NCBI GenBank assembly: GCA_007136165.1
Contig: SLHK01000121.1
Coordinates: 1 to 25,683, forward strand
Direction: 5' to 3'
DNA length: 25,683 nucleotides
Origin: Syntrophomonadaceae bacterium
Lineage (GTDB): Bacteria; Bacillota; Dethiobacteria; PWVN01
The notes beneath the pieces are model-generated. The model did no database searches. It saw nothing but the letters and a program-made list of their open reading frames with translations, and was not told the DNA's origin. Below are positions 2,427 to 25,683 of the stretch, in pieces (the stretch's first letter is position 1; each line of letters starts with the position of its first letter). The position numbers and the translations under genes were made by a program.

Positions 2427-5061
2427 GTTTCTCTTCCTTCTCTTTCTCTTTCTTTTTCAGTTCCAGCTGGAGTTCATGGACCATCTGCATGACTTCCAGG
2501 GGTGTCAGGGTCATCAAATCCAGGTTCTTGATCTTTTTCTCCACCCGGCTGAGATCCTGCTCCACGGAAAAAAGGTCCAACTGCTTCTCCTGCAGGGCCT
2601 CAAAAGCCCTGACCTTCCCCGTCTTTTTAGGTTTTGGGCCAGGAGATGCCAGTTTTTTGTCTTCCAGGTTTTTAAGCATAACCCGGGCCTCGTTAATAAG
2701 TTCTGCGGGAAGGCCGGCCAGCCTGGCCACCTGAATTCCGTAACTCCTGCTGGCGGCGCCGGGGATGACCTTGCGTAAAAAGACCACGTCTTCCCCCCGC
2801 TCTTTCACCGCAATGTTGTAGTTCTTGACTCCCGGAAGCCTTTGTTCCAGGGCTGTCAGCTCGTGGTAGTGGGTGGCGAAGAGGGTTTTGGCCCCCAAAT
2901 GCCGGTGGATAAAGTTGGTGGTGGCCCAGGCAATGCTGACACCGTCGTAGGTGCTGGTTCCCCGGCCCACTTCGTCCAGGATCACCAGGCTGCGGGCGGT
3001 GGCGTTTTTCAGGATGTTGGCCACCTCGTTCATCTCCACCATGAAGGTGCTCTGCCCCCCTACCAGGTCGTCGGCGGCCCCCACCCGGGTAAAAATCCTG
3101 TCCACGATACCTATCCTGGCCTTCCGGGCGGGGATGAAACAGCCCATCTGGGCCATGAGGACCAGGAGGGCGCTCTGCCGCAGGTAAGTGGACTTCCCTG
3201 CCATGTTGGGCCCCGTCAGCAGGATAATATTCTGACCGCCCCCCAGGGAAAGGTCGTTTTCCACGAAGAACTGGTCCGGCAGCACCTGTTCCACCACCGG
3301 GTGCCGGCCGCCCTCGATGTGAATTTCCTCCCCGTGGTCCAGTTCGGGCTTGATGTACCCGTATTCCTGGGAGACCAGGGCAAAGCTTAAGAGACAGTCC
3401 ACTTCCGCCAGGATTTCACCGGTTTCCTGGATGCTGTCGGTCTCGGCGGCAATATCTTTTCTGAGGTCTTGAAAGAGCCGGTACTCCAGTTCCTGGCTCC
3501 GGTCTTCCGCCCTGAGGATGATGTCCTCTTTTTCCTTTAGGGGCTCTGAGATAAACCGTTCGGCGTTGACCAGGGTTTGCTTGCGGATGTAGTCCGCCGG
3601 GGCCATATCCAGGTTGGCTTTTGTGATCTCGATGTAGTAGCCGAAGACCTTGTTGTAGCGGACCTTTAAGGACTTAATCCCCGTCCTTTCCCGCTCTTTG
3701 GTTTCAAAATCCGCCAGCCAGCGGCGGCTGTCCCGGGAGATGCCCCGCAGTTCGTCCAAATCGGCGTTGTAACCGCTGCGGATGATGCCGCCTTCCTTGA
3801 GGGCCAGGGGAGGGTTGTCCACCACCGCCCGGGACATCTTCTCTATCAGCTCACCCTGCAGGGCGATTCTCTCACCTAAATGCTTCAAGCTGACGCTCTC
3901 AAGGAGGGCTTCCCGGATGGCAGGCAAAAGAAGCAGGGTGTTTTTCAGGGCCACCACATCCCGGGGGCTGCAGGTGCCCATGGCAATGCGGGAAATAAGC
4001 CGCTTAAGGTCGTAGGCTTCCTTGAGGCTGCTGCTGACGACGCTTTTAAGCTTCAAGTTCTCAGAGAATTCCTCCACCGCCGCCTGCCTTAAGAGGATTC
4101 TCTCTTTATTTATCAGGGGCTGTTCCAGCCACCTCTTTAAGAGGCGGCCTCCCATGGAGGTGCTGGTTTTATCCAAAACCCAAAGGAGAGACCCGTAGCG
4201 TTTCCCCTCCCTCAGGCTGCTGGTCAGTTCCAGGTTTTTACGGGATATGGAATCCAGGAGCATGTATTCCTCGGGGCTGTAAAGGCGCACCTTTTTGATA
4301 TGGCTCATGTCTCCCGAGTTTTCCTTAAGGTATGCCAGGAGCGCCCCGGCGGCGCAGGTAACGGCGGGGTAGTCCGAAAGGCCTATGGCTTCCAGGGACA
4401 AACAATTAAAGTGCCGGAGGATGCTCTCTTCCCCCTTTTTTAAGCTGAAGCTTAACCGGGGGCGGTAATTTATCAAAGCTTTGCCTTTAACTTTTAAAAA
4501 GTCAGCTTCTTTCTGCAGCTCTTCCGGCACCAGGGCCTCGGCGGCCCCCATGCGCTGAAGCTCCTCCAGGGCTTTTTCCCGGGCCGCTGCCGGGGCGAAT
4601 TCCGCCGCCATCAGCTCTCCCGTGGAAACGTCCACGGTGGCCAGCCCCCACCTGTCCTGGTAACCGGCCAGGGCCAGGAGAAAGTTATTCTCTTTTTCCC
4701 TCAGCATGGCCTGTTCCACCAGGGTGCCGGGGGTGATTACCCGGACCACCTCCCGTTTCACCAGGCCTTTGGCCGTCCGGGGGTCCTCCACCTGCTCGCA
4801 GATGGCTACCTTGTACCCCTTTTCGATGAGGCGGGAGATATAGTTTTCAGCGGCATGGTAAGGCACGCCCGCCAGGGGCACATGGTTGTCCTTCCCCGTC
4901 TCCCGGGAGGTCAGGGTGATCTCCAGCTCCCGGGCCGCCGTTTTGGCGTCTTCGAAGAACATCTCGTAAAAATCCCCCACGCGAAAGAAGAGGATTTTAT
5001 CCCCGTGGTCTTCCTTTATCTTACGGTACTGCCTGATCATCGGCGTTTCATTTTCCGGCAA
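2419..5061 (-). CDS. mutS: DNA mismatch repair protein MutS
   Basis: TPMIRQY and FFRVGDFYEMF N-terminus, GPNMAGKSTY Walker A, DEVGRGT, C-terminal QLDLF clamp-binding motif. TTG start with GGAGGG RBS. Confidence 0.98.
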   Translation of the reverse strand: MPENETPMIRQYRKIKEDHGDKILFFRVGDFYEMFFEDAKTAARELEITLTSRETGKDNHVPLAGVPYHAAENYISRLIEKGYKVAICEQVEDPRTAKGLVKREVVRVITPGTLVEQAMLREKENNFLLALAGYQDRWGLATVDVSTGELMAAEFAPAAAREKALEELQRMGAAEALVPEELQKEADFLKVKGKALINYRPRLSFSLKKGEESILRHFNCLSLEAIGLSDYPAVTCAAGALLAYLKENSGDMSHIKKVRLYSPEEYMLLDSISRKNLELTSSLREGKRYGSLLWVLDKTSTSMGGRLLKRWLEQPLINKERILLRQAAVEEFSENLKLKSVVSSSLKEAYDLKRLISRIAMGTCSPRDVVALKNTLLLLPAIREALLESVSLKHLGERIALQGELIEKMSRAVVDNPPLALKEGGIIRSGYNADLDELRGISRDSRRWLADFETKERERTGIKSLKVRYNKVFGYYIEITKANLDMAPADYIRKQTLVNAERFISEPLKEKEDIILRAEDRSQELEYRLFQDLRKDIAAETDSIQETGEILAEVDCLLSFALVSQEYGYIKPELDHGEEIHIEGGRHPVVEQVLPDQFFVENDLSLGGGQNIILLTGPNMAGKSTYLRQSALLVLMAQMGCFIPARKARIGIVDRIFTRVGAADDLVGGQSTFMVEMNEVANILKNATARSLVILDEVGRGTSTYDGVSIAWATTNFIHRHLGAKTLFATHYHELTALEQRLPGVKNYNIAVKERGEDVVFLRKVIPGAASRSYGIQVARLAGLPAELINEARVMLKNLEDKKLASPGPKPKKTGKVRAFEALQEKQLDLFSVEQDLSRVEKKIKNLDLMTLTPLEVMQMVHELQLELKKKEKEKEEKHG

Positions 5062-14565: not shown

Positions 14566-14567
14566 GC

Positions 14568-16826
14568 CTACCTTACACCCAGAAGCAAAATTACCAGCAA
14601 AACCAACCAAACCACAACCAGGTCGAAATTATAGTTCATGGGGTTAATCATCTGGTAAAAAGGGTCTCCCTTGGTATCGTAATCCGCTTTGATAAAAGCT
14701 ACAAAGGTCCTGCGCATCAGGCGGTGCAGTTTTGCATCATAACAGGAAGCTAAGCGGCACCACCGGGAATATATTTTATCTTGTATTCCCACAGACAAGC
14801 GGGCCGCCGCCTGCCCTGCCCTGGTCAGGGTTACAGCATCAAAGTACGCCAGGCGCCGGGCCAGGGCTTTGAAAGGGATGCCGGATTGCACGTAGATGAC
14901 TTCAAACAGGTGGTCCAGGCCGCTGCCGATGCCGGTATACATTCTGGAGGCCTGCTTGAGAGCCACTTCCGTAAAGAAGCCGGCGGCTTTGCTTTCCCAG
15001 GCTGCCGTTCTGCTAAAAAGGGACGTAAACCAGGGCCCCGGTTTTACATAGGCCTTATCTACCCCTCTTTCCAGGGATGACCCCAGAAGGGTATACACCA
15101 GAACCGTTCCCCTGACAAGAGGTGTATACAGCAGGGACTCAATGCTGAGCCAGCGGGGGGGATGCCGGTAAAAGAGGCCGGTTTTACTAAAGAAAAGGTA
15201 AAAGATAACTCCCAGGGATAAGGCCGTACCAATGGCCAGCAGGTCGGGCCTGGCCCAAAAGTCCAGTTTTTCCAGATAGTTTACCCTGTAGGGGTCGAAT
15301 CCGAAACCTTCCGTTAAAGGAATAATGACACTGGTTAAAAGGAACTTGGGGAAGACTCCTGCAAGAATAACGGCGGCGGCAAAAAGCCCGAACACCAGTT
15401 TTTCCAACAGGGGTTCCGGCCCCACCTGCCCCCGGTCTTCCCTCTCCGGCCCAAAGAAGACGCCCAGGGTCAGTTTCAATATATAGCAGACGGTCAGGGC
15501 ACTGGTTATGACGAATATTTTTTCTGCATAGAGGAAAATCTGGCTGCCCTGATGGGCAGCTTCTTCCACGGCATGATGCAGCAGGGTTTTGCTGGCATAA
15601 CCGTTAAAGCCGGGGACGCCGGCAATCCCGCAGGCCGCCACCGCAAAACACAGGGACGTGACAGGAAACTTTCTCCACAGGCCTCCCAGGTGGTCCAGGT
15701 CCAGTTCATGGGTACGGGCATAGACGGCCCCCGCCATCATGAACATCCCGGCTTTGAAAAAGGCGTGGTTAAAGATGTGAAAGACCGTACCGGTAAATCC
15801 CATGGGCCCTTCCGGGCCCAGGTAGGCAGCACACCCGACCCCCATGAGAATATACCCCATTTGGCTGACACTGCTGTAGGCCAGTATCCTTTTGATGTTT
15901 GTCTGAAAGAGGGCGATGAACGCAGCCATGAACATGGTGGCTATTCCCGTCCACAGGATGACAAAACCCAAATTGCTGCTGGTACTTCCGAGAAAACCTC
16001 CGGTTTCCGGCGCGAAGGCCTGGGCGGCAACCCGCAGGATGCCGTAGGCTCCCGTCTTGATCATGATTCCCGACAGGAGGGCGCTGGCCGGCGAAGGGGC
16101 TACGGGGTGGGCTTTGGGAAGCCAGATGTGGACAGGGGCCATGCCGGCCTTAATGCCAAAGCCTAGAAGGAGGAATCCCGCTGTCAAGTAGCGCATATAT
16201 GCGGGAGCCGTCATGTCCTGAAACAGGGGTGCCAAAGAGACGCTGCCCGTGAAGGAATTGAGGAGCAATATTCCCGTAAGCAGGCTTAAGCCGCCCGCTA
16301 CTCCCAAAAAGAGATATAAGCGGCCGGCTTCCATGGCCTCTTCCGTTTCCGTATGCACCACCAGGGCATAGGATGCCAGGGACATGACTTCGAAGAAAAT
16401 AAAAAGGCTGAAGAGGTCTCCTGCAAGAAAAACCCCCAGGCAGCCCGCCTGGGTCAGGGAAAGAAAGGCGTAGTACCGGGGGCGGGCGTGTTCGTGCCCC
16501 ATGTAGGTTAAGGAGAAGAGGACGGCCAGGAACCATATGAAAGAAGATAAAAGGGTAAAGAAAGCCCCCAGGGGGCCGACGGAAAAATTCAGCCCCCAGC
16601 CCAAAAAACCGGGCAGAGCAAAAAAAGCCGCTTCCTCCCCCGCTTTAAGGTACAAAAGGGCGCTGAGAAAAAAGGTTATACCGGCAAAAAATACCGCCGT
16701 CAGATCCCGGGTGCTCTCTTTTCTCTTCTTTAAAAAGGGTACCAGAAAGGAAAAGGCAAGGGGCAGCAGGATAATAACGGGTGGTATTAGAGAAAATCCC
16801 GTGTCTTTTAGAAAATCCATATCCAC
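14568..16826 (-). CDS. Antiporter-like subunit 5 (MrpA/NuoL/HyfB-like) with extended lateral-helix region and terminal TM
   Basis: FFEVMS (TM5 Glu), GFGIKAG..PVHIWLPKAHP, GIMIKTG, HAFFKA and GYASKT motifs; 204-aa C-terminal tail ending in a hydrophobic helix. Confidence 0.9.
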   Translation of the reverse strand: MDMDFLKDTGFSLIPPVIILLPLAFSFLVPFLKKRKESTRDLTAVFFAGITFFLSALLYLKAGEEAAFFALPGFLGWGLNFSVGPLGAFFTLLSSFIWFLAVLFSLTYMGHEHARPRYYAFLSLTQAGCLGVFLAGDLFSLFIFFEVMSLASYALVVHTETEEAMEAGRLYLFLGVAGGLSLLTGILLLNSFTGSVSLAPLFQDMTAPAYMRYLTAGFLLLGFGIKAGMAPVHIWLPKAHPVAPSPASALLSGIMIKTGAYGILRVAAQAFAPETGGFLGSTSSNLGFVILWTGIATMFMAAFIALFQTNIKRILAYSSVSQMGYILMGVGCAAYLGPEGPMGFTGTVFHIFNHAFFKAGMFMMAGAVYARTHELDLDHLGGLWRKFPVTSLCFAVAACGIAGVPGFNGYASKTLLHHAVEEAAHQGSQIFLYAEKIFVITSALTVCYILKLTLGVFFGPEREDRGQVGPEPLLEKLVFGLFAAAVILAGVFPKFLLTSVIIPLTEGFGFDPYRVNYLEKLDFWARPDLLAIGTALSLGVIFYLFFSKTGLFYRHPPRWLSIESLLYTPLVRGTVLVYTLLGSSLERGVDKAYVKPGPWFTSLFSRTAAWESKAAGFFTEVALKQASRMYTGIGSGLDHLFEVIYVQSGIPFKALARRLAYFDAVTLTRAGQAAARLSVGIQDKIYSRWCRLASCYDAKLHRLMRRTFVAFIKADYDTKGDPFYQMINPMNYNFDLVVVWLVLLVILLLGVR

Positions 16827-16863
16827 CTCTCCTCTCCAAAAGAAATACCCGGCGGGAAGCCCG

Positions 16864-18387
16864 CTAAAAGAAAGCTTTTACTCCCGCTTTAACAATCTCC
16901 AGGGGCCAGTTTACTGCCAGCAGCCCAAAGGCACCGCAGCCTATTGTCAAAATCAGGATGGGCAGGGCTGTCTTCCAGGAACCCGCCTTGAAGTCCCCTT
17001 GCCCCTCTCCTCTCGCCGCGGCAGTTTGCCTGAAGGCTTCCTCCTCCTCCTGTCCGTCCCCGTGGCCGGCAGGTACGCCAAAGAAGGCCTGGATGGCGAT
17101 GGGAAGGTAATAGGCAGCATTTAAAAAGCTGCTCACCAGCAGTACCCCCACCAGGACGGGCATCCCTTCTTCCAGGGCACCGAGACTTAAGTACCACTTG
17201 CTGATGAATACATTAAAGGGCGGCATCCCCACGGCTGTCAGGGCTGCCGCGGAAAAGCACAGCATAACCCCGGGCATTTGGTGCCCCGCTCCCTTCATTT
17301 CGCTGATTTTTCGGGTCCCCATGCCCCTGATAACGGCACCGGCGCAAAGAAACAGGGTCCCCTTCATAAAAGCGTGGGCCATAATATGGTATACAGCCCC
17401 CGCCACGGCCGCCTCCTGGAGCAGGGATATTCCCAGAATAATGTAACCTACCTGGGCAATACCCGAATAAGCCAGGCGGCGAATCAGGTCATCCTGGACC
17501 AGGGCGATGGCAGACCCCAACAATATACTTAAGGAGGCCAGGTAAATCAATGGCTGGGCCCAACCCGCCCCGGCCAGGAAGGAAAAGCCGTATACGTCCC
17601 CAAAGACCCGCAGCATGCCGTAAGCCCCGGTTTTTAACATTATGGCGGAGGAAATGACGGCAGCGGGCAGGGGTGCCCGGGCATAAGCATCGGGCATCCA
17701 GAAGTGCAGGGGAACGAGGGCGGCTTTGGTGCCAAAAGCCACCATGAAGCCGCAAAAAGCCAGCAAAGCCAGGGGGGAGGCCTCCGTAACCAAGCCTCCT
17801 TGACCCAGGGCCAGGCTTCCCGTTTCTCTTAAAATAATGACGGCGGATAAAAAGAGGGCTACCCCGGCCGTAATGGTCATAAAGAGGAACTTTAAGCCCG
17901 CCTTCAGGGAGGCCTCCGTCTGATGGTGAATAACCAGGACGAAAAACATCAGGGACATGAACTCGAAGAAGAGGTAGAAGGTGAAGAAGTCGCCGGCCAG
18001 GGCCACCCCGTAACATCCCCCCAGGGCCAGGAGCATGCAGGCAAAAAAACGGTCGGCTTTCTTGTCACCTTTCATGTACTGCTGGGCATAGATGCTGACC
18101 ACGAAACCGAAGAAGACAAAAAGCAGGAGCATATAGAAACCCAGGATATCCACCCGGTAGGAAAGCCCCAGGGGCGGCAGCAAATCGAAGGTTTTCTGCA
18201 GCTCCTCCCCCCGGCGAAGGGGGCCGTAGAGGAAGGCGGTTATAATCAACGGTATTAGGGTGGAAACTGTAATCAACCTTTCCTTAAGCCCTATGCTGCT
18301 TTTGCGTAATAGATAGAGGGCTCCGCCCCCCAGCAGGGGGGTTAAGACGATAAAAGAGATCAAGATGGTGGTCAGGGTCGGGTGCAT
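16864..18387 (-). CDS. mrpD: Antiporter-like subunit 4 (MrpD family)
   Basis: FFEFMS, GTKAALVPLHFWMPDAY, IMLKTG, HAFMKG and FISKW motifs. Start moved to ATG 18387 (GGAGG RBS, no overlap with the upstream gene). Confidence 0.9.
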   Translation of the reverse strand: MHPTLTTILISFIVLTPLLGGGALYLLRKSSIGLKERLITVSTLIPLIITAFLYGPLRRGEELQKTFDLLPPLGLSYRVDILGFYMLLLFVFFGFVVSIYAQQYMKGDKKADRFFACMLLALGGCYGVALAGDFFTFYLFFEFMSLMFFVLVIHHQTEASLKAGLKFLFMTITAGVALFLSAVIILRETGSLALGQGGLVTEASPLALLAFCGFMVAFGTKAALVPLHFWMPDAYARAPLPAAVISSAIMLKTGAYGMLRVFGDVYGFSFLAGAGWAQPLIYLASLSILLGSAIALVQDDLIRRLAYSGIAQVGYIILGISLLQEAAVAGAVYHIMAHAFMKGTLFLCAGAVIRGMGTRKISEMKGAGHQMPGVMLCFSAAALTAVGMPPFNVFISKWYLSLGALEEGMPVLVGVLLVSSFLNAAYYLPIAIQAFFGVPAGHGDGQEEEEAFRQTAAARGEGQGDFKAGSWKTALPILILTIGCGAFGLLAVNWPLEIVKAGVKAFF

Positions 18388-18406
18388 TATCTTTCCCTCC
18401 GCTTCC

Positions 18407-19879
18407 TCAAAATACGTGGGCAATAACCTTTTCCGCCAGAGGTATGGAAAGCTCATGGGCAAAGAGGCCCAGGGCAAAGCAGCAGGCCGTCAGGATTATG
18501 GTTGGTATGAGCATGGCGGGTGAAGTTTCCCAACCCCCGGGCCTTGTAAAGGTGCCCTGCCGAAAATAAGCATTAACCATAACAGGCAGGTAATAGGCGG
18601 CGTTTAAAAGGGCGCTGGCCAGGATCACAAAGGCAAAGACCGTCTTGCCCCCTCCCAGGCTGCCCTGGATTAAATAATACTTGCTGATAAAAGCGTTTAG
18701 AGGCAGGATGCCGATGAGCCCCAGGCCCGCCAGGCTGAAGCAGGCCATGGTCAGGGGCAGGCGCCGTCCGACTCCGTACAATTCTTCCAAACGGCTTTTC
18801 CCTGTCTCCTTGAGGATTTGCCCGGCGCAGAAGAACAGGGTAATTTTTAAAAAGGCATGGTTGATCAAATGGAGGATTCCTCCCGTCAAACCGGCTGGTG
18901 TTAAGAGAAGCGCCCCCAGAATGATGTATCCCAACTGGCCTATGGTGGAGTAGGCCAACCTTAGTTTTAATACACTTTGTCGCAGGGCCAGAATGGAGCC
19001 CAGGAGGATGGAGAGGGAAACCAGGACGGCCAGAATGTCTTGCAGGCCCAAAGACTCGATGACCGCCGGATTGTAGATGAAATAAAGAACCCGGATTACG
19101 CCGAAGGCCCCGCTTTTGACCACGGCAACGGCGTGCAGCAGGGCGCTGACGGGGGCCGGGGCCACCATGGCGCCGGGAAGCCAGGCATGCAGGGGGATGA
19201 CAGCCGCCTTGACGGCAAAGCCTGCAACCAGCAGGAGGAAGGCTCCCGCCAGCATTGTACGGTTCCCTTCCAGGAAGGGGGCCAGGCTTCCCCCCGGCTC
19301 AAAAGCCGCCCCCGGCACCAGGCTTTGCAGGGCAAAAAAGGCTGCCAGGATGAGGCCGCCCCCGGAAAGGCAGTAGATGATATAGCGGGTCCCCGATTTA
19401 AAGGCTTCGGTACTGCCGGAGTGAATTACCAGGGGATAGGTACACAGGGTCAAATACTCAAAAAAGACGTAAAGGCTGAACAGGTTCCCGGAAAAAGCCA
19501 CTCCCATGGTGGCGCTCATGGACAGGATGTAATAAAAGAAGTATCTTCCCTGACCCCCTTCCCCCTTCATGTATCCCAGGGAGTAAATGATGGCAAAAAT
19601 CCACAGGCTTCCGGCTACCAGGGCGAAGGCCATGCTCAGAGGGTCCGCCCTCAAGGTTAACTCCAGATTGGGTAAAAGGCGAAGGGGCGGTGACTGGGGG
19701 AGCTGCCCCTGCATTACCGGTGGAAGCAGGGATAACACCACGATTAAGTTCAGGCTAACCGTAAGCAGGGCAGCGACAGCCCTTTCCCTGTATTTATCTT
19801 CGGGAAGCACTAAAATGAGGAGGGCCCCCGCCAGGGGAATCAGAACAGCCAGGGCAGGCAAATAAGTATTGACAGCCAT
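18407..19879 (-). CDS. mrpD: Antiporter-like subunit 3 (MrpD family, AMVAP..LLHAVAVVK subtype)
   Basis: FFEYLT, AVKAAVIPLHAWLPGAMVAP, LLHAVAVVKSG, HAFLKI and FISKY motifs. Confidence 0.9.
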   Translation of the reverse strand: MAVNTYLPALAVLIPLAGALLILVLPEDKYRERAVAALLTVSLNLIVVLSLLPPVMQGQLPQSPPLRLLPNLELTLRADPLSMAFALVAGSLWIFAIIYSLGYMKGEGGQGRYFFYYILSMSATMGVAFSGNLFSLYVFFEYLTLCTYPLVIHSGSTEAFKSGTRYIIYCLSGGGLILAAFFALQSLVPGAAFEPGGSLAPFLEGNRTMLAGAFLLLVAGFAVKAAVIPLHAWLPGAMVAPAPVSALLHAVAVVKSGAFGVIRVLYFIYNPAVIESLGLQDILAVLVSLSILLGSILALRQSVLKLRLAYSTIGQLGYIILGALLLTPAGLTGGILHLINHAFLKITLFFCAGQILKETGKSRLEELYGVGRRLPLTMACFSLAGLGLIGILPLNAFISKYYLIQGSLGGGKTVFAFVILASALLNAAYYLPVMVNAYFRQGTFTRPGGWETSPAMLIPTIILTACCFALGLFAHELSIPLAEKVIAHVF

Positions 19880-19901
19880 CCGTTAAAATCCCCCTTCCTG
19901 C

Positions 19902-21380
19902 TTAAAAATGGTTAATCATGGTTCCGGCAATAAGGCGGGCCATCTCCAGGGGCCAGTTTGCGGGAGCCAGGGCAAAAACAAAGGTTCCCGCCGCCAGGAC
20001 TATTATGGGCGCCAGCATAACGGGGGGTGCTTCCAGGCTGTTTCCCCCCGTCTCTCCGGGTGGGGCAAAAAAGGCCGCCACCACAATAGGTAAATAATAA
20101 GCTGCATTCAAAAGACTGCTGATAATCAACAGGAAGACATATGCCGGCGCCCCCGCATCCAGGGCACCCAGGCTCAACAGCAGTTTGCTTAAAAAGCCGT
20201 TAAAGGGAGGAATACCCACCATGCTCAGGGCGGCCAGGGTGAAGCAGGCCATGGTCAGGGGCATCTTTAGGCCTATGCCCCCCAGATGGCTGATACGGCG
20301 CTTGCCCGTCTGCAAGATTATGGCTCCGGCGCAGAGAAAAAGGCAGCCCTTCATCATGGCATGGGCGAATATATGGAAAAGGGCTCCCGTTAAGGCCACC
20401 TCGGTCAGAAGGGACAGCCCCAGGTAAATGTAGCCGACCTGGGCGATGGTGGAGTAGGCCAGGCGCCTTTTTAAGTCATCCTGCCTTAAAGCCAGGGCGG
20501 AGCCCAAAAGGATGGTTATCACCGCCAGGGCCAGGGTTATCCTGTGCCACCCGGCCTGCTGGATCAAACCTATACTGAAGACCTCATAAAAAACCCGGAT
20601 GAGGCCGAAGACCCCGATTTTTACCATGACTCCCGACAGGAGAGCGCTGACGGGAGCCGGGGCTGCCGGGTGGGCATCGGGAAGCCATACATGGAGGGGA
20701 AAGGCCCCGGCCTTGATGCCAAAACCCGTAAGAAAACCCAAAAAGATGGCCAGGGTGAAGGGAGTTGCATCCGTAAGCAGGCCGCTGCTTCCGAAAGCCA
20801 GGTCTCCCGCCTCAAAGTAAAGGAGTATGGTGCTGAAAAAGACGGCAAACCCCGCTGCCATGGCCATATAGATGTATTTGCCCCCCGCAAACATGGCCGG
20901 GGGGTCTTCTTCGTGAATGACTAAAACATAAGAGGTGACGGCCATCAACTCAAAAAAGAGCAGCAGCCCCAGCATATCCCCCGCCATGACTATTCCCAGG
21001 CTAGCTCCCAGGGCTGCCAGCAGGAAGCCATAATAACGGTCAAGGGCGTGGTTATGGGCCATGTATGCCCGGGAGTAGATGACGGCCAGCACCCACAGGA
21101 AAGAAATCAGCAGTGCCATGGAGTAACCCAGATGGTCCACCCTGAAATGAATGGCCAGGGGAAAGGAAAAAAAGGTGTAAGCGGAAACTACCGGCCCTCC
21201 CTCTCTCAGGGCGGGATAAAGGGACAGGATTGTCAAGAAAACCAGTATTGAGGAAACCAGGGCAAACCCCTCTCCCCACCTCCTGTTCCGGCGCACCAGG
21301 AAAAATGCGGCTATGGAAGCAAGGAAGACAAAGGCTAAAATTATTACGGGAGCATCGGCCAGGGCCACCAAACTCAACAC
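19902..21380 (-). CDS. mrpD: Antiporter-like subunit 2 (MrpD family)
   Basis: FFELMA, GIKAGAFPLHVWLPDAHP, VMVKIG, DLKRRLAYST and GFLSKL motifs. Confidence 0.9.
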   Translation of the reverse strand: MLSLVALADAPVIILAFVFLASIAAFFLVRRNRRWGEGFALVSSILVFLTILSLYPALREGGPVVSAYTFFSFPLAIHFRVDHLGYSMALLISFLWVLAVIYSRAYMAHNHALDRYYGFLLAALGASLGIVMAGDMLGLLLFFELMAVTSYVLVIHEEDPPAMFAGGKYIYMAMAAGFAVFFSTILLYFEAGDLAFGSSGLLTDATPFTLAIFLGFLTGFGIKAGAFPLHVWLPDAHPAAPAPVSALLSGVMVKIGVFGLIRVFYEVFSIGLIQQAGWHRITLALAVITILLGSALALRQDDLKRRLAYSTIAQVGYIYLGLSLLTEVALTGALFHIFAHAMMKGCLFLCAGAIILQTGKRRISHLGGIGLKMPLTMACFTLAALSMVGIPPFNGFLSKLLLSLGALDAGAPAYVFLLIISSLLNAAYYLPIVVAAFFAPPGETGGNSLEAPPVMLAPIIVLAAGTFVFALAPANWPLEMARLIAGTMINHF

Positions 21381-21414
21381 CTCGATTCCACCGCCGAAGC
21401 GGCATTCTGTTAGG

Positions 21415-21723
21415 TTAATGAGGAAATTCTTTTTTCCTCAGGGAAGCCAAGGTCAAGGTGACGGCCACAACGGCGGAGAATATAACCGTTGTTTCCAGGA
21501 AGGTATCGAAGGCCCGGTAGTTCAGCAATATGTTGCCCACCAGGTTGTAGCCCCCACTCTCTTCCACCCCTTTCTCCACATACCTCTGGCTGACGTAGTT
21601 GTTGGTGGGGTTCTGGGGGTCACCGTACAGGGGCAGCTCCATAACGGCCAGGAGCAGCAGGTAGTTAACGCTTATTACCAGGATCAGGACGACCAGATAA
21701 AAGGCCGCTTTATTACGCCGCAT
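21415..21723 (-). CDS. MbhE-like subunit (separately encoded MrpA C-terminal segment)
   Basis: NLVGNILLNYRAFDTFLET matches the MrpA/MbhE N.V..IL.D(F/Y)R..DT..E motif. Confidence 0.85.
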   Translation of the reverse strand: MRRNKAAFYLVVLILVISVNYLLLLAVMELPLYGDPQNPTNNYVSQRYVEKGVEESGGYNLVGNILLNYRAFDTFLETTVIFSAVVAVTLTLASLRKKEFPH

Positions 21724-21965
21724 CAGTGGGGCCTCCTTCCCACCCTGCTGACCACTGCCACCATGAGAATGGTGGTGGCTATACCTACCGCCGCTTCCGT
21801 AATGGCAATGTCAGGGGCATTGAGTTTCTGCCATACCAGGGCCATGACAGCGCTGTAAACGCCAAAGATAATGATAATGTAGAGCAAATCCTTAAAAATA
21901 AAGACGGAGAAGGTTACCAGGAGCAGGACCAGGAGCAGCAAAAACAAGACAGGATCCAGCGGCAT
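21723..21965 (-). CDS. DUF4040 / MbhD-like subunit (separately encoded MrpA segment)
   Basis: LNAPDIAITEAAVG motif, 3 TM. ATG 21965 preferred (GGGGTG RBS); GTG 21974 is possible. Confidence 0.87.
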   Translation of the reverse strand: MPLDPVLFLLLLVLLLVTFSVFIFKDLLYIIIIFGVYSAVMALVWQKLNAPDIAITEAAVGIATTILMVAVVSRVGRRPH

Positions 21966-21970
21966 AGGCG

Positions 21971-22306
21971 TCACCCCCGGCCTTTCCTGGAGTAATTGTC
22001 TTCATACCAGGTAGCGGGAGCCACTGCATCTTTCCGGTCATAAGCTGTCTTGGCAATTAAGTGGGTCATAACGGGGTTGATGGTGGCAATCAGGCCGCCG
22101 ATTAACACCACTTTGACGCCACTGGTAAAATCGGGCACGATAAAAAGTATGGCAAAAAGAATCAACCCGGCCCCCAGGGTATCGCATTTACCCATGGCGT
22201 GCATGCGGGTAAAGATATCAGGCAGGCGAAGCATTCCCACAGCTCCCACCATCAGGAAGAAGAATCCCCAGAGAAGGCTTAAGGCAATCACGATATCGGT
22301 GAACAC
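21971..22306 (-). CDS. mrpG: Mrp antiporter subunit G
   Basis: GMLRLPDIFTRMHAMGKCDTLG and NPVMTHLIAK motifs. Confidence 0.93.
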   Translation of the reverse strand: MFTDIVIALSLLWGFFFLMVGAVGMLRLPDIFTRMHAMGKCDTLGAGLILFAILFIVPDFTSGVKVVLIGGLIATINPVMTHLIAKTAYDRKDAVAPATWYEDNYSRKGRG

Positions 22307-22321
22307 GGGAGATCCCCCCTT

Positions 22322-22594
22322 TTACAGTTTTCCTTCTTCCAGGAGACGCAGCACTCCCAGGGTGGCCACAAAGGCCCCCAGGACAAAAACCAGGGCTACA
22401 TCCAGGTAAAGGTTGATCTCTGCATACGGGGCGCTCAGCAAGACCAGCATGACTATCAGGGAGACAGCATAGTTGATAGCCACCACCCGGTCGGCAGCTG
22501 AAGGGCCAATAAATGACCTGATGAGGACCAGGATGAGGATAAAAACCAGTCCATACCGGAGAAAGGTTAACAGAGATTCAATCACTTTTCCCAC
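22322..22594 (-). CDS. mrpF: Mrp antiporter subunit F
   Basis: GPSAADRVVA and YLDVAL motifs; 3 TM. Confidence 0.92.
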   Translation of the reverse strand: MGKVIESLLTFLRYGLVFILILVLIRSFIGPSAADRVVAINYAVSLIVMLVLLSAPYAEINLYLDVALVFVLGAFVATLGVLRLLEEGKL

Positions 22595-23093
22595 TTCCCT
22601 CCAATTTTTTCATCTGGTGATACAAAGGCCAGTGCTGGACCGCCTCGGCATTCTCCCGGGTGAAGCAGTGGACCACCAGGCGGTCTTCTTCACATTCCAC
22701 CGTTATGGTACCGGGGGTCAAGGTAATGGAATTGAGAAACAAAGCCTTGGAAAGGTCTTTTTCCAGGCCCAACCTGTAGGTGACAAAGCCCGGGCTGATG
22801 GGCATACGGGGATGAAGGACCAGGTAGGCCACATAAACGTTGGCTTTAACCACTTCAATCCCCAGGGAGACCAGATATACCAGAAGCCGGAGGGCCTGCC
22901 CCGGGGTAAAACGGGTCCCTCCTTCCCGGATGAAAATAACATCTGCCCAAAAGGTCATCAAGAGGAAGGAAATTACTGTCCCCATGAGAATATGCTGCCA
23001 GTCAAAGCTGGCGGATATCAAGAGCCAAAAAACCAGCAATAGAAAGGATAAAAAGACAAACCCCACCGGATCCTTTTTAATGTGCCTGAACAC
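22578..23093 (-). CDS. mrpE: Mrp antiporter subunit E
   Basis: EVVKANVYVA, PISPGFV, NSITLTPGTIT and VVHC motifs. GTG 23093 preferred (RBS present) over TTG 23126. Confidence 0.92.
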   Translation of the reverse strand: MFRHIKKDPVGFVFLSFLLLVFWLLISASFDWQHILMGTVISFLLMTFWADVIFIREGGTRFTPGQALRLLVYLVSLGIEVVKANVYVAYLVLHPRMPISPGFVTYRLGLEKDLSKALFLNSITLTPGTITVECEEDRLVVHCFTRENAEAVQHWPLYHQMKKLEGSGKSD

Positions 23094-23122
23094 TCCATCA
23101 CCCCCCGGTTTTTTATCTTTTG

Positions 23123-24619
23123 TCAAGGAAAGAAAACGGGTTCCACGGCCCCGCTGATAAGACTAAGGATTGGGGCAGGGAACAAACCCAGGTACAAAAT
23201 CCCGCAAGCCAGGAGAACAACCGGCGCCAACAGGGGCAAGGGTATTCGGTCCATGACCACCTTTTCCTTCTGATTTCCGGTAAAGTAAGCCTGCCATATT
23301 ATGGGTAAGTAATACATGGCGTTTAAGAGGCCGCTTAGGACAATCAGGGCAACCAGGCCCCGGCTGCCTGCCTCGATACTTCCCATGGCCAGGGCATATT
23401 TGGTGATAAAGCCGGCAAAAATGGGAATTCCCACCATCGATAAGGCAGCTACGGTGAAGGAAGCCATGGTGACGGGCATAATTCGCCCTAAACCTGAAAA
23501 CAGGGTAACATTTCTCTTCCCCGTTTGAAAAAGGATATTGCCGGCGGCCATGAAGAGGCAAACCTTCATGAAGGCATGAACTACCACATGCATCAAGGCC
23601 GCCTTTATACCCCAGGGCGTACCCAGGCTTAAGCCCAAAAAGATATACCCCACCTGGGATACGGTGGAATAGGCCAGGCGCCTTTTTAAGTCTTTTTGTG
23701 TAAAAGCAAAAATGGAACCGGCCACAATAGCCATAGCCGACATGCCTGTGATCAGGCCGGCAATATTCATTTCCGCCAGGATGCCGGGGCCAAAAACACC
23801 GTAGAGAATTTTAAAGAAGGCCATGATGTAGATTTTGACCACCAGTCCGGACAGCAGGGCGCTGGAAGGGAAAGGCGCTGAGGAGTGGGCATCGGGGAGC
23901 CAGATGTGGAGAGGGAAAAGGGCTGCCTTGAGGCTGAATCCCACCAGCAAAAAACCCATGGTGGTCCAGATGACAAAAGGAAAGCTGTCCCGAGTACCTT
24001 CCAGTTCAATTGCTATAAAGGGAATGTTGAGGTTTCCTGTTATGGTATATAGGAATCCAATGGCAAACACGATAAAGCCCGATCCTATGGTGGCCAGCAG
24101 AAGGTATTTAAGGGATGCTTCTGTGGCCTCTTTGGTGCCTTTGGCAATGATGAGGGCACAGGAAGCCAGGCCTACAATCTCCAGGAACACATAAAGGTTG
24201 AAAATATCATTTGTAACCACCATTCCCGTCATGCCCGTCATTAACAGGAGGTATGCGGTATAATACCAACCTGCTTTTTGATCCGGGATTTCTCTCTCCA
24301 GGCTGTTCAAACTGTAGATGGCTATTAAAAAACAAAACCCCGTTATCAAGGCTATCATCAGGGCTGCCAGGAGGTTAATGTGGAGCTCTATGCCCCAGGG
24401 AGGCTCAAAGCCGCCCAAATATATGCTGTAACTGCCCCCTCTATGTACGTCGTATAGCAGAAAAAGGGAAAAGAAAAAACTGAACCCTGTAACCACCGCT
24501 ACAATGGGTCCGCACAATGACCTCTTCCACCGGGCGAAGATGGGGAGCAGAAATGCAATTACCAGAGAAAAAATGATGATTACCATGGGAATTCTGTCAG
24601 TAAGCAAGGCTCCTGTCAC
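23123..24619 (-). CDS. mrpD: Antiporter-like subunit 1 (MrpD)
   Basis: DIFNLYVFLEI, LKAALFPLHIWLPDAHS, LVVKI, DLKRRLAYST and GFITKY motifs; GTGA overlap with mrpC. Confidence 0.93.
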   Translation of the reverse strand: MTGALLTDRIPMVIIIFSLVIAFLLPIFARWKRSLCGPIVAVVTGFSFFFSLFLLYDVHRGGSYSIYLGGFEPPWGIELHINLLAALMIALITGFCFLIAIYSLNSLEREIPDQKAGWYYTAYLLLMTGMTGMVVTNDIFNLYVFLEIVGLASCALIIAKGTKEATEASLKYLLLATIGSGFIVFAIGFLYTITGNLNIPFIAIELEGTRDSFPFVIWTTMGFLLVGFSLKAALFPLHIWLPDAHSSAPFPSSALLSGLVVKIYIMAFFKILYGVFGPGILAEMNIAGLITGMSAMAIVAGSIFAFTQKDLKRRLAYSTVSQVGYIFLGLSLGTPWGIKAALMHVVVHAFMKVCLFMAAGNILFQTGKRNVTLFSGLGRIMPVTMASFTVAALSMVGIPIFAGFITKYALAMGSIEAGSRGLVALIVLSGLLNAMYYLPIIWQAYFTGNQKEKVVMDRIPLPLLAPVVLLACGILYLGLFPAPILSLISGAVEPVFFP

Positions 24620-24984
24620 CTCATCTTCATAAGCTCTGAAACATGGACAGTTCCATAGAAGCGATACAGGCTGACAATCATGGCCAGGGCAAAAGCCGTG
24701 ACACTAAAGCTAACCACGATACCGGTGAGAATCAGGGCCTGGGGCAAGGGGTTCACATACAGGACACCGCCTGTAGCAGGGTTGACAATGGGCGGGGCTC
24801 CTCCGGAGATGTTGCCGACGGCAATAAAAAAGAGAAAGATGGCTGTTTCCATGACATTTAAACCTATTACTTTCTTAATCAGGTTTGGTTGGGTCAAGAC
24901 GATTAAGCATCCCATACTGAATAAGAGAATGGAAACAAAGTAAGGGAAATTGGCCAGCAGCATGAACACGTCCAGCTCTCTCAC
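24616..24984 (-). CDS. mrpC: Mrp antiporter subunit C (NuoK-like)
   Basis: NLIKKVIGL and NPLPQALILTGIVV motifs. Confidence 0.94.
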   Translation of the reverse strand: MRELDVFMLLANFPYFVSILLFSMGCLIVLTQPNLIKKVIGLNVMETAIFLFFIAVGNISGGAPPIVNPATGGVLYVNPLPQALILTGIVVSFSVTAFALAMIVSLYRFYGTVHVSELMKMR

Positions 24985-25373
24985 CTTCCATCCTCCTCTA
25001 CCAGCAGATAGTACATGGTAACCAGGGAACTGGCTACCAGGAGCCCGATGGCTAAACTCATAAGGGAAATGAGGCCGACACTGAAAAGCTCCCCCGGCGT
25101 CCCGTAGCCTTCTTTGGGCGGCAAAAAGAATTTAATTCCTTCGACGGCACCGCCTATGCCGATGAAGACAATTGCCAGGTGCTGGGGAAGCCTCTTGGAG
25201 CCCAGGTTAACACCAAATATGAGAATATAAAGCACCATGCCCAACCCCAGCACTATTCCCCCGGCAAAACCTCCCCCCGGGGACAGGTGGCCGTGAAATA
25301 TCACATAAAAGGCATAAACCTGTATGAAGAGAAGCACATACCGAAAAACGATCCTCACGACGAAATCCTTCAT
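24981..25373 (-). CDS. mrpB: Mrp antiporter subunit B (MnhB domain)
   Basis: YVIFHGHLSPGGGFAGG motif; first gene of the operon. Confidence 0.92.
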   Translation of the reverse strand: MKDFVVRIVFRYVLLFIQVYAFYVIFHGHLSPGGGFAGGIVLGLGMVLYILIFGVNLGSKRLPQHLAIVFIGIGGAVEGIKFFLPPKEGYGTPGELFSVGLISLMSLAIGLLVASSLVTMYYLLVEEDGR

Positions 25374-25461
25374 AAAGGTATACCCCGCTTTGCATCGGTT
25401 TCTTAAGTAAAAAAGCCTGATAACACTGTATTCCCCCAGTTCTCTTAAATCTCCTTCCAGC

Positions 25462-25479
25462 TTGTGAAAGTTATAACAT
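25462..25479. promoter_or_regulatory. Rex-like operator overlapping a putative extended -10 (TGtTATAAC, minus strand) of the Mrp operon
   Basis: TTGTGAA-AGTT-ATAACAT has 2 mismatches to TTGT(G/T)AA-N4-TT(A/C)ACAA. Confidence 0.4.
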
Positions 25480-25618
25480 TAAAATTATTCAGAAGTATCT
25501 TGTTATTTTTATCTTATATGGAGCAATCTGAAGGTTTTGGGACTGTTTATATAGAAATAATGAATATACCCTGAGTTTCCATAGATTCAGGCCAATTAAA
25601 ATTTTTAGGAGGATTCTC

Positions 25619-25683
25619 ATGCTAAAATTTTATTGTTTTCCCACGTGAACTACCTGCAGAAAAGCGAAAGCGTGGCTTTCAGA
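25619..25683 (+). CDS. ArsC/Spx-family protein, 5' part only, with in-frame UGA (probable selenocysteine, UxxC)
   Basis: AGGAGG RBS (25607-12), ATG 25619; reads MLKFYCFPT-UGA-TTCRKAKAWLS, matching the family N-terminus Y..P.CxxCRKAKxWL. Confidence 0.8.

Follow-up and report, generated by a model that had tools for sequence, protein, structure and literature searches.

A UGA-interrupted gene of the ArsC/Spx family in a Syntrophomonadaceae genome probably encodes a selenocysteine-containing redoxin

The DNA analysed here, referred to below as the window, is a stretch of 25,683 nucleotides that makes up an entire contig (C170; GenBank SLHK01000121.1) of a metagenome-assembled genome (MAG) from a Syntrophomonadaceae bacterium (G000; 1.24 Mb in 231 contigs, 75.6% complete). 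At the end of the window we identified what is, with a probability of about 0.75, a genuine selenoprotein gene, which would encode a 115-residue thioredoxin-fold protein of the ArsC/Spx/MgsR family with a UGA decoded as selenocysteine (Sec) and with a redoxin function. Taken separately, insertion of Sec at the UGA is highly probable, and a role as redoxin rather than regulator is likely; the latter is favoured because prxU, the gene of a selenoperoxiredoxin, often lies directly upstream. A hidden ArsC/Spx-family selenoprotein gene with a UxxC motif had been proposed from the letters of the window alone (the original prediction). This proposal is supported by the reading frame, the conservation of the UGA, a hairpin past it, a selD gene with its own Sec codon in the same genome, and Cys-containing homologues.

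In the mechanism that we propose, SelB with Sec-tRNA(Sec) would bind a small hairpin 17 nt past the UGA (6-bp stem, GUG loop and an optional lower stem), and the SelB-bound complex would insert Sec in place of termination. The protein would then act as a selenol/thiol-disulfide oxidoreductase (redoxin) of the oxidative-stress response. Sec10 would attack the oxidised substrate, Cys13 would resolve the selenenylsulfide, and a cellular reductant would recycle the protein. In many relatives the likely substrate is PrxU, encoded directly upstream in the same operon, with the redoxin as the probable PrxU reductant. In G000, the gene would be co-transcribed with an EVE-domain gene instead of prxU.

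The gene and its product

The following features of the gene lie in the window:
25607–25612, forward strand: ribosome-binding site AGGAGG, read directly, with a 6-nt spacer to the start codon
25619–25683, forward strand: first 21 codons and 2 bases of the 115-codon ArsC/Spx-like selenoprotein gene, with the ATG at 25619–25621
25634–25636, forward strand: codon of Cys6, a clade-specific cysteine four residues before Sec10 (Thr in Spx)
25646–25648, forward strand: in-frame UGA (U10), read as Sec and aligned with the first Cys of the Spx CxxC
25655–25657, forward strand: codon of Cys13 in U10-x-x-C13, probably the resolving cysteine and unchanged in all groups compared

The start of the gene was found as first described, with the ribosome-binding site, the ATG and the nine codons M-L-K-F-Y-C-F-P-T ahead of the TGA, after which T-T-C-R-K-A-K-A-W-L-S run to the end of the window. 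Either AGGAGG or GGGAGG, with the same spacer, precedes the gene in four other assemblies. The remainder of the gene was located on contig C35 of the same MAG, which begins with the last 121 bases of the window and continues in the same frame, with no further stop, to 115 codons (L002:122–401); a frame of ~115–135 residues had been anticipated upon contig extension. The gene ends with a TGA that is followed at once by an in-frame TAA (L002:402–407), and the orthologues mostly end with TAA or TAG. In other assemblies of the same organism, the Mrp genes of the window, the selenoprotein gene and the genes of C35 (EVE-domain and MerR-like) lie together on one contig, of 5.8 kb in one case and 56.8 kb in another, so that C170 and C35 are truly joined.

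The read-through product matched the Pfam model ArsC (PF03960) with 61.2 bits (E = 1.3e-16; cut-off 24) and exceeded the cut-off of the NCBIfam model for the Spx/MgsR subfamily (TIGR01617; 82.9 bits, cut-off 75.05). It scored far below the cut-offs of TIGR00014, the glutaredoxin-dependent arsenate reductase ArsC (39.4 bits, cut-off 106.05), and of NF041106, ArsC_rel_Se_1 (24.1 bits, cut-off 85), and no ars genes were present among the neighbouring genes examined. The best matches of solved structure were Spx proteins (E about 1e-17), and the identity to a Peribacillus Spx was 37%. The AlphaFold2 model, built from 17 orthologues, reached a pLDDT (predicted local distance difference test) score of 93.7 and had a thioredoxin-like beta-alpha layout.

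In the HMMER alignment, residues 1–114 align ungapped to residues 1–114 of Bacillus subtilis Spx. Because of this, the UGA falls exactly on Cys10 of C10-x-x-C13, as had been claimed for the first Cys of the Spx CxxC. U10-T-T-C13 thus occupies the position of the CXXC redox switch of Spx (residues 10–13), with Sec replacing Cys10. The search for Cys-containing homologues that align at the UGA was likewise successful: Cys stands in this column in 51 Spx proteins, in 11 short homologues and in one orthologue.

Conservation of the UGA codon

Across 149 genomes from the same class, a six-frame search (orthologue threshold E <= 1e-20) recovered orthologues in 48. A single TGA was present inside the match in 46 of these; one orthologue had Cys (G032), and one match started past the site. 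A scan of a species-representative genome collection added 17 named MAG carriers, all with U. They include Syntrophomonadaceae MAGs from soda-lake sediment, Pelotomaculum, Desulfitobacteriia, Peptococcaceae and other unclassified Bacillota, as well as MAGs labelled Atribacteria (Atribacterota) and Sumerlaeota. The alignment of these 17 sequences shows no variation at F4, Y5, C6, F7, P8, U10, T12, C13, K15–K17, W19 and L20. Ahead of the UGA, codons differ in the third position alone, with F4-Y5-C6-F7-P8 fixed; selection at the protein level thus acts on one and the same frame before and after the UGA. Cys6 is found in 45 of the 46 rows of the Sec clade, and the remaining row begins past this position.

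In a maximum-likelihood tree, the only Cys orthologue was nested within the Sec clade, which implies a Sec-to-Cys reversion. As read from these alignments, Sec is the near-universal state of the clade, with one reversion to Cys, in which the putative hairpin was lost too.

The letters of the start codon, the TGA and the hairpin were identical in four other assemblies (two NCBI MAGs, one Logan and one JGI assembly of soda-lake sediment). Contigs of three further DNA runs covered the whole stretch with the TGA and differed only at L002:32, 242 and 300. A sequencing or assembly error at the TGA is excluded by these assemblies and runs; a misread TGC or TGT had been named as one outcome that would undo the original prediction, and the TGA was upheld.

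A candidate SECIS hairpin past the UGA

Two elements of the candidate selenocysteine insertion sequence (SECIS) were located:
25666–25680, forward strand: candidate apical hairpin, with the 5' arm GAAAGC at 25666–25671, the loop GUG at 25672–25674 and the 3' arm GCUUUC at 25675–25680
25653–25657, forward strand: CCUGC, the 5' half of an optional lower stem, with its partner GCAGG at L002:122–126, just past the end of the window

The hairpin starts 17 nt past the UGA, and its loop G lies 23 nt past it; bacterial SECIS stem-loops have a G in the apical loop, and the distance rule of bSECISearch is 16–37 nt. RNAalifold, run on 31 orthologues, predicted one helix, GAAAGC/GCUUUC, round an invariant GUG loop, with a stem of 6–7 bp and with the six core pairs formed in 94–100% of the sequences. 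Sliding the 3' arm by 1–3 columns lowered every pairing measure. In three sequences both bases of the outer pair are changed, giving A-U for G-C; the G-to-A change is synonymous (GCG to GCA), and the C-to-U change converts Ser21 to Leu21. The signal consists mainly of conservation at synonymous sites, with Ala18 encoded by GCG and Leu20 by CTT in 31/31 sequences.

All six pairs can form in 40 of 42 distinct Sec genes. In contrast, they form in none of 37 distinct Spx genes (at most four of six) and in none of 12 short Cys homologues, although the peptide encoded by the hairpin stretch, K-A-K-A-W-L, is identical in the Spx of Bacilli. The candidate hairpin travels with the UGA and not with the encoded peptide, and the Spx genes are an unusually clean control for this. 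In the Cys orthologue (L018), three arm positions are changed and the helix is lost.

The hairpin that had originally been drawn differed in its details. Its 2-bp GC-GAAA-GC element cannot coexist with the outer AAAGC/GCTTT pairing proposed with it, as the same GC would be used twice, and this element was rejected. A hairpin past the UGA does stand, as the GUG-loop stem, and the outer pairing survives only as an alternative register, in which AAAGC (25661–65) pairs with GCUUU (25675–79) round a 9-nt loop from G25666. The alternative is slightly more stable in this sequence (-14.7 vs -13.5 kcal/mol). However, double changes are absent from it, and in 5 of the 31 orthologues its loop opens with A or C. 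For these two reasons, the GUG-loop register is preferred.

The minimum-energy fold of this sequence contained the lower stem, as did those of many orthologues, though not of all; in them it would pair the x-x-C codons (CCUGY) with a downstream RCAGG. A hairpin of similar design, with 8 bp and a 3-nt GUU loop, lies 33 nt past the Sec codon of this genome's selD. No SECIS family was matched in an Rfam search of the selenoprotein gene. A pattern scan also called this hairpin terminator-like on the minus strand, with a T-rich run (window 25665–25681). No converging minus-strand gene was seen in 1.6 kb of C35 downstream, so this call is probably incidental.

Selenocysteine machinery

The edge of contig C27 carries the last 141 residues of selB (L007:2–427), followed by selD (L007:439–1479), which itself has an in-frame TGA in S-S-A-G-U-G-A-K. 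Apart from selD, no further selenoprotein was found in the MAG in a search for a Sec-containing formate dehydrogenase; its formate dehydrogenase-like genes lack a TGA. Complete selA and selB are present in a member of the same genus (G001), and both genes scored above cut-off in the four other relatives searched (G003, G007, G022 and G032), including G032, the sole genome with a Cys orthologue. In G022, contig C95 (L014, L066, L071) carries the orthologue (556–897) and, beginning 2.3 kb further downstream, tRNA-SeC(tca) (3161–3252), selA (3348–4715) and selB (from 4771).

An operon with a selenoperoxiredoxin

The most frequent neighbour of the orthologues is a peroxiredoxin gene, which by clustering lies directly upstream and on the same strand in 14 of 34 loci; these loci come from three families. 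A U-containing peroxiredoxin frame could be read through in ten loci (L049:884–1477 and its equivalents in L043, L047, L050, L052–L056 and L060). In this protein, the peroxidatic Cys is replaced by Sec (DFTFVUPTE), and its score against the PrxU equivalog model NF040737 is 364 bits (cut-off 270). In L049, the gap between prxU and the redoxin gene is about 20 nt, and the redoxin gene has its own ribosome-binding site inside this gap. The regulators encoded upstream of prxU operons include a PerR-like Fur-family gene (L052) and an Rrf2 regulator (L043). No thioredoxin-reductase-like gene was found within about 900 nt upstream of the prxU operons in the eight loci checked. Its recurrence in an operon with the redoxin gene suggests that two selenoproteins work as a pair in peroxide detoxification.

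Weighing of the evidence and alternative readings

Several observations weigh against a Sec-containing redoxin and are gathered here. With respect to decoding, the covariation of the hairpin amounts to one pair in three related sequences, the signal being mostly conservation, and the 9-nt-loop register pairs equally well across the orthologues. Of the sel genes that the original prediction named for a search, selD with its Sec codon and the end of selB are present, whereas selA and tRNA-Sec were not recovered from the 75.6%-complete MAG. ARAGORN and the Rfam model RF01852 gave only tRNA-Trp, tRNA-Ser and similar hits in G000 and G001; the RF01852 hit of G001 is a tRNA-Ser, and there is no tRNA upstream of its selA. 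The only evidence from an RNA library is one contig over the 3' part of the gene, which suggests transcription in situ but could derive from DNA. With respect to function, prxU was not found in four carrier genomes (G000, its genus-mate G001, G015 and G022), so that the function must extend beyond the PrxU link. In addition, the closest characterised relatives by sequence are Spx regulators, and the C-terminal domain (CTD) of G000's RNA polymerase alpha subunit (rpoA, contig C173) retains V-R-S-Y-N-C-L-K, including the Tyr contacted by Spx. A search of 41 relatives yielded no canonical Spx; this and the retained CTD motif leave a regulator alive as a reading of low probability.

The best-surviving alternative, although an improbable one, is thus a Sec-containing Spx-type regulator, in which U10-x-x-C13 would sense oxidants and the oxidised form would bind the alpha CTD, redirect transcription and substitute for canonical Spx. 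In its favour are the structure matches to Spx with their ungapped alignment and 37% identity, the score above the TIGR01617 cut-off, the 41 relatives in which canonical Spx was not found, and the equivalent of Tyr263 in the VRSYNCLK motif of the alpha CTD. R92-P93 and the basic residues at positions 62 and 65 are also retained, and the nearby prxU and PerR-like gene would suit an oxidative-stress role.

The interface with RNA polymerase argues otherwise. CXXC, Gly52 and the RPI motif are conserved features of Spx, and Gly52 is essential for the contact with the alpha CTD (PMC8501982). We aligned the interface in 46 rows of the Sec clade, 51 Spx proteins and 11 short Cys homologues. Gly52 was present in 51/51 Spx proteins and 11/11 short homologues but in 0/46 clade members, where the protein studied here has Glu and 41 members in all have T, S, E, K or D. 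For the Spx interface residues L46, L76, L79 and Y80, the clade mostly has A, E/D, A and A, respectively. R92-P93 is invariant in it, with Leu at position 94 in 41/46 (the RPI motif of Spx). However, an R-P pair can be aligned at this place in short homologues that are non-regulatory as well (L129, P0021, P0022 and P0028) and therefore does not discriminate Spx. Of the two sequence marks that had been suggested as a check, the Gly is accordingly absent, and the RPI motif is kept in its first two residues, in a form shared with non-regulatory proteins. The clade has instead a signature of its own, consisting of Cys6, Ala46 (44/46), Asn58 and a basic residue at position 65.

The length of the protein points in the same direction. 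It has 115 residues, and the 17 named MAG orthologues have 109–119 (in two, reading began past the start), as against 123–143 in Spx. The clade lacks the C-terminal tail of Spx, which comprises about 16 residues of a total of about 131 and ends with FLPRKVR. In Spx, the C-terminal extension is used for control by YjbH/ClpXP. Furthermore, the scores remained below the cut-offs of all three Spx models, with 89.4 vs 123 bits for NF002459, 69.8 vs 152 for NF009885 and 59.5 vs 159 for NF009210. The maximum-likelihood tree, which held 98 sequences, sets the Sec clade (support 98/88) apart from Spx (100/100), and its main split (96/98) places Spx and the short Cys group on one side and the Sec clade and a YusI-like group on the other. 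We also know of no bacterial selenoprotein that is a transcription factor. By these alignments and trees, the clade is a sister subfamily of Spx and probably no Spx-type RNA-polymerase regulator. The suggestion of a Sec-bearing true Spx-type regulator is not supported, given the replacement of Gly52 in 46/46 members, the missing tail and the scores under the Spx cut-offs.

A variant of this idea is slightly less probable still. The clade could be the Spx equivalent of those anaerobic Bacillota that lack canonical Spx, with a Sec redox switch and a different RNA polymerase interface, and could control peroxide-stress genes such as prxU. If this were true, it would be the first selenoprotein transcription factor.

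That the UGA is a real stop is very unlikely. The gene would then be a pseudogene, or its first nine codons would form a leader peptide, with a fragment of 73 residues translated independently after it, as in the databases, where public gene calls begin at Met43 (P0003); the tRNA-Sec and selA genes missing from the MAG would fit. Against this stands the protein-level conservation of the nine codons before the UGA and of the 32 codons from the UGA to Met43, which vary synonymously in >60 genomes. A fragment starting at Met43 would lack the active-site strand and helix. There is no ribosome-binding site ahead of Met43 and a strong one ahead of the ATG at 25619, and the hairpin past the codon is specific to the UGA form.

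In public protein databases, the gene appears either as fragments of 67–94 residues or with W at position 10. The full-length public metagenome proteins with Trp at this position (P0004 and P0006–P0009) are explained by short contigs that were called with TGA=Trp. In G000, TGA is the terminator of 196 of 800 long open reading frames and hence an ordinary stop elsewhere in the genome, which rules out a changed genetic code. Decoding as a standard amino acid (Trp, Cys or Gly), by a changed code or by near-cognate suppression, is the least probable reading of all, since it has only those W-containing entries in its favour, and has against it the 196 TGA-terminated frames, the site itself (the nucleophilic Cys of CxxC, a classic Sec position), the UGA of selD at a known Sec site, the selA and selB genes of the carriers and the tRNA-SeC of G022.

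Other neighbouring genes

The EVE-domain gene (L002:424–837) starts 19 nt past the selenoprotein gene, and an EVE-domain neighbour recurs in five other orthologous loci, which come from other families. Past this gene, a stem-loop with a T-run (L002 about 838–866) is probably a terminator. A promoter scan upstream of the selenoprotein gene found nothing.

On the other side lies the Mrp-like antiporter operon (window 14566–25528); a true Spx-type regulator sharing a control region with it would, by the original prediction, have been notable. In two near-identical relatives, L063 (GCA_003563315.1) and L065 (JGI 3300000365), the flanks are 96–99% identical to the window, but the match stops at about 14565 and resumes at about 25529, and about 140 bases in the gap are unmatched. 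The operon is absent from these loci and present in other assemblies and is therefore a strain-variable 11-kb block. Mrp genes were found beside the orthologue in no locus other than that of this strain. A conserved Mrp link is thus ruled out, and the adjacency is a feature of some strains only.

Comparison with known systems

The selenoprotein type is already catalogued, and the gene described here is another member. 'ArsC-like' selenoproteins were listed in 2006 (PMC1794560). The Global Ocean Sampling (GOS) selenoproteome of 2008 (Zhang & Gladyshev) contains 'Arsenate reductase 2' (cd03032, UxxC; PMC2398784), for which it counts 42 Sec sequences and 238 Cys homologues; cd03032 is the ArsC_Spx subfamily model (PMC8755942). 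A 2022 review gives 'Arsenate reductase-like protein, COG1393, UxxC' among the predicted families (PMC9312934). The statement that Sec-containing ArsC-like proteins are not unprecedented is borne out by these listings. Our literature search found no link between bacterial Spx and selenocysteine.

Like 'Arsenate reductase 2', the protein has the ArsC thioredoxin fold nearest to the Spx subfamily, Sec as the first residue of UxxC and Cys homologues, and both are computation-only predictions. That family came from marine metagenome reads, whereas the clade described here, compared with it by description only, belongs to anaerobic Bacillota (soda-lake Syntrophomonadaceae, Pelotomaculum and Desulfitobacteriia) and to a few other phyla. 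The features of the clade that can be set beside it are Sec in all but one member, the invariant extra Cys6 and the frequent prxU operon.

With the Spx of B. subtilis and other Bacilli (PDB 1Z3E, 3GFK, 7F75), the protein shares the fold, an ungapped alignment up to residue 114, C/U10-x-x-C13, the KAKAWL helix and R92-P93. It differs from them by the lack of Gly52 and of the C-terminal degradation/adaptor tail, by the altered alpha-CTD interface, by Sec in place of Cys and by its separate clade. The YusI/YfgD-like 'arsenate reductase family proteins' (PDB 3GKX, 2M46, 3FZ4; P0022, P0028) belong to the same subfamily, lie on the same side of the main split, are short CxxC proteins of 113–120 residues and lack the Spx tail. 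However, they carry Cys and not Sec, have a middle region that is 3 residues longer, and are 30–40% identical to the protein.

The NCBI annotation model NF041106 ('ArsC_rel_Se_1, ArsC family (seleno)protein') also describes an ArsC-family selenoprotein. Because the score against it is 24 bits at a cut-off of 85, the protein studied here belongs to a different branch, which has no dedicated model, and this accounts for the truncated products in the records. The annotation calls for repair, as the public records give a fragment or a Trp at the active site. As a consequence, the redox centre and the selenium dependence are invisible across a class of anaerobic Bacillota.

For the prxU-linked members, a glutaredoxin-like protein offers a working model. 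In Clostridium pasteurianum, Cp9 is reportedly the direct reductant of the AhpC-type peroxiredoxin Cp20, for which Reynolds, Meyer and Poole are said to have given biochemical proof in 2002. There, as here, the gene of a small redoxin, in that case with CxxC, lies beside that of a peroxiredoxin. Cp9 belongs to another redoxin family and has no selenium, and the link of the proteins described here to the peroxiredoxin is one of gene adjacency alone.

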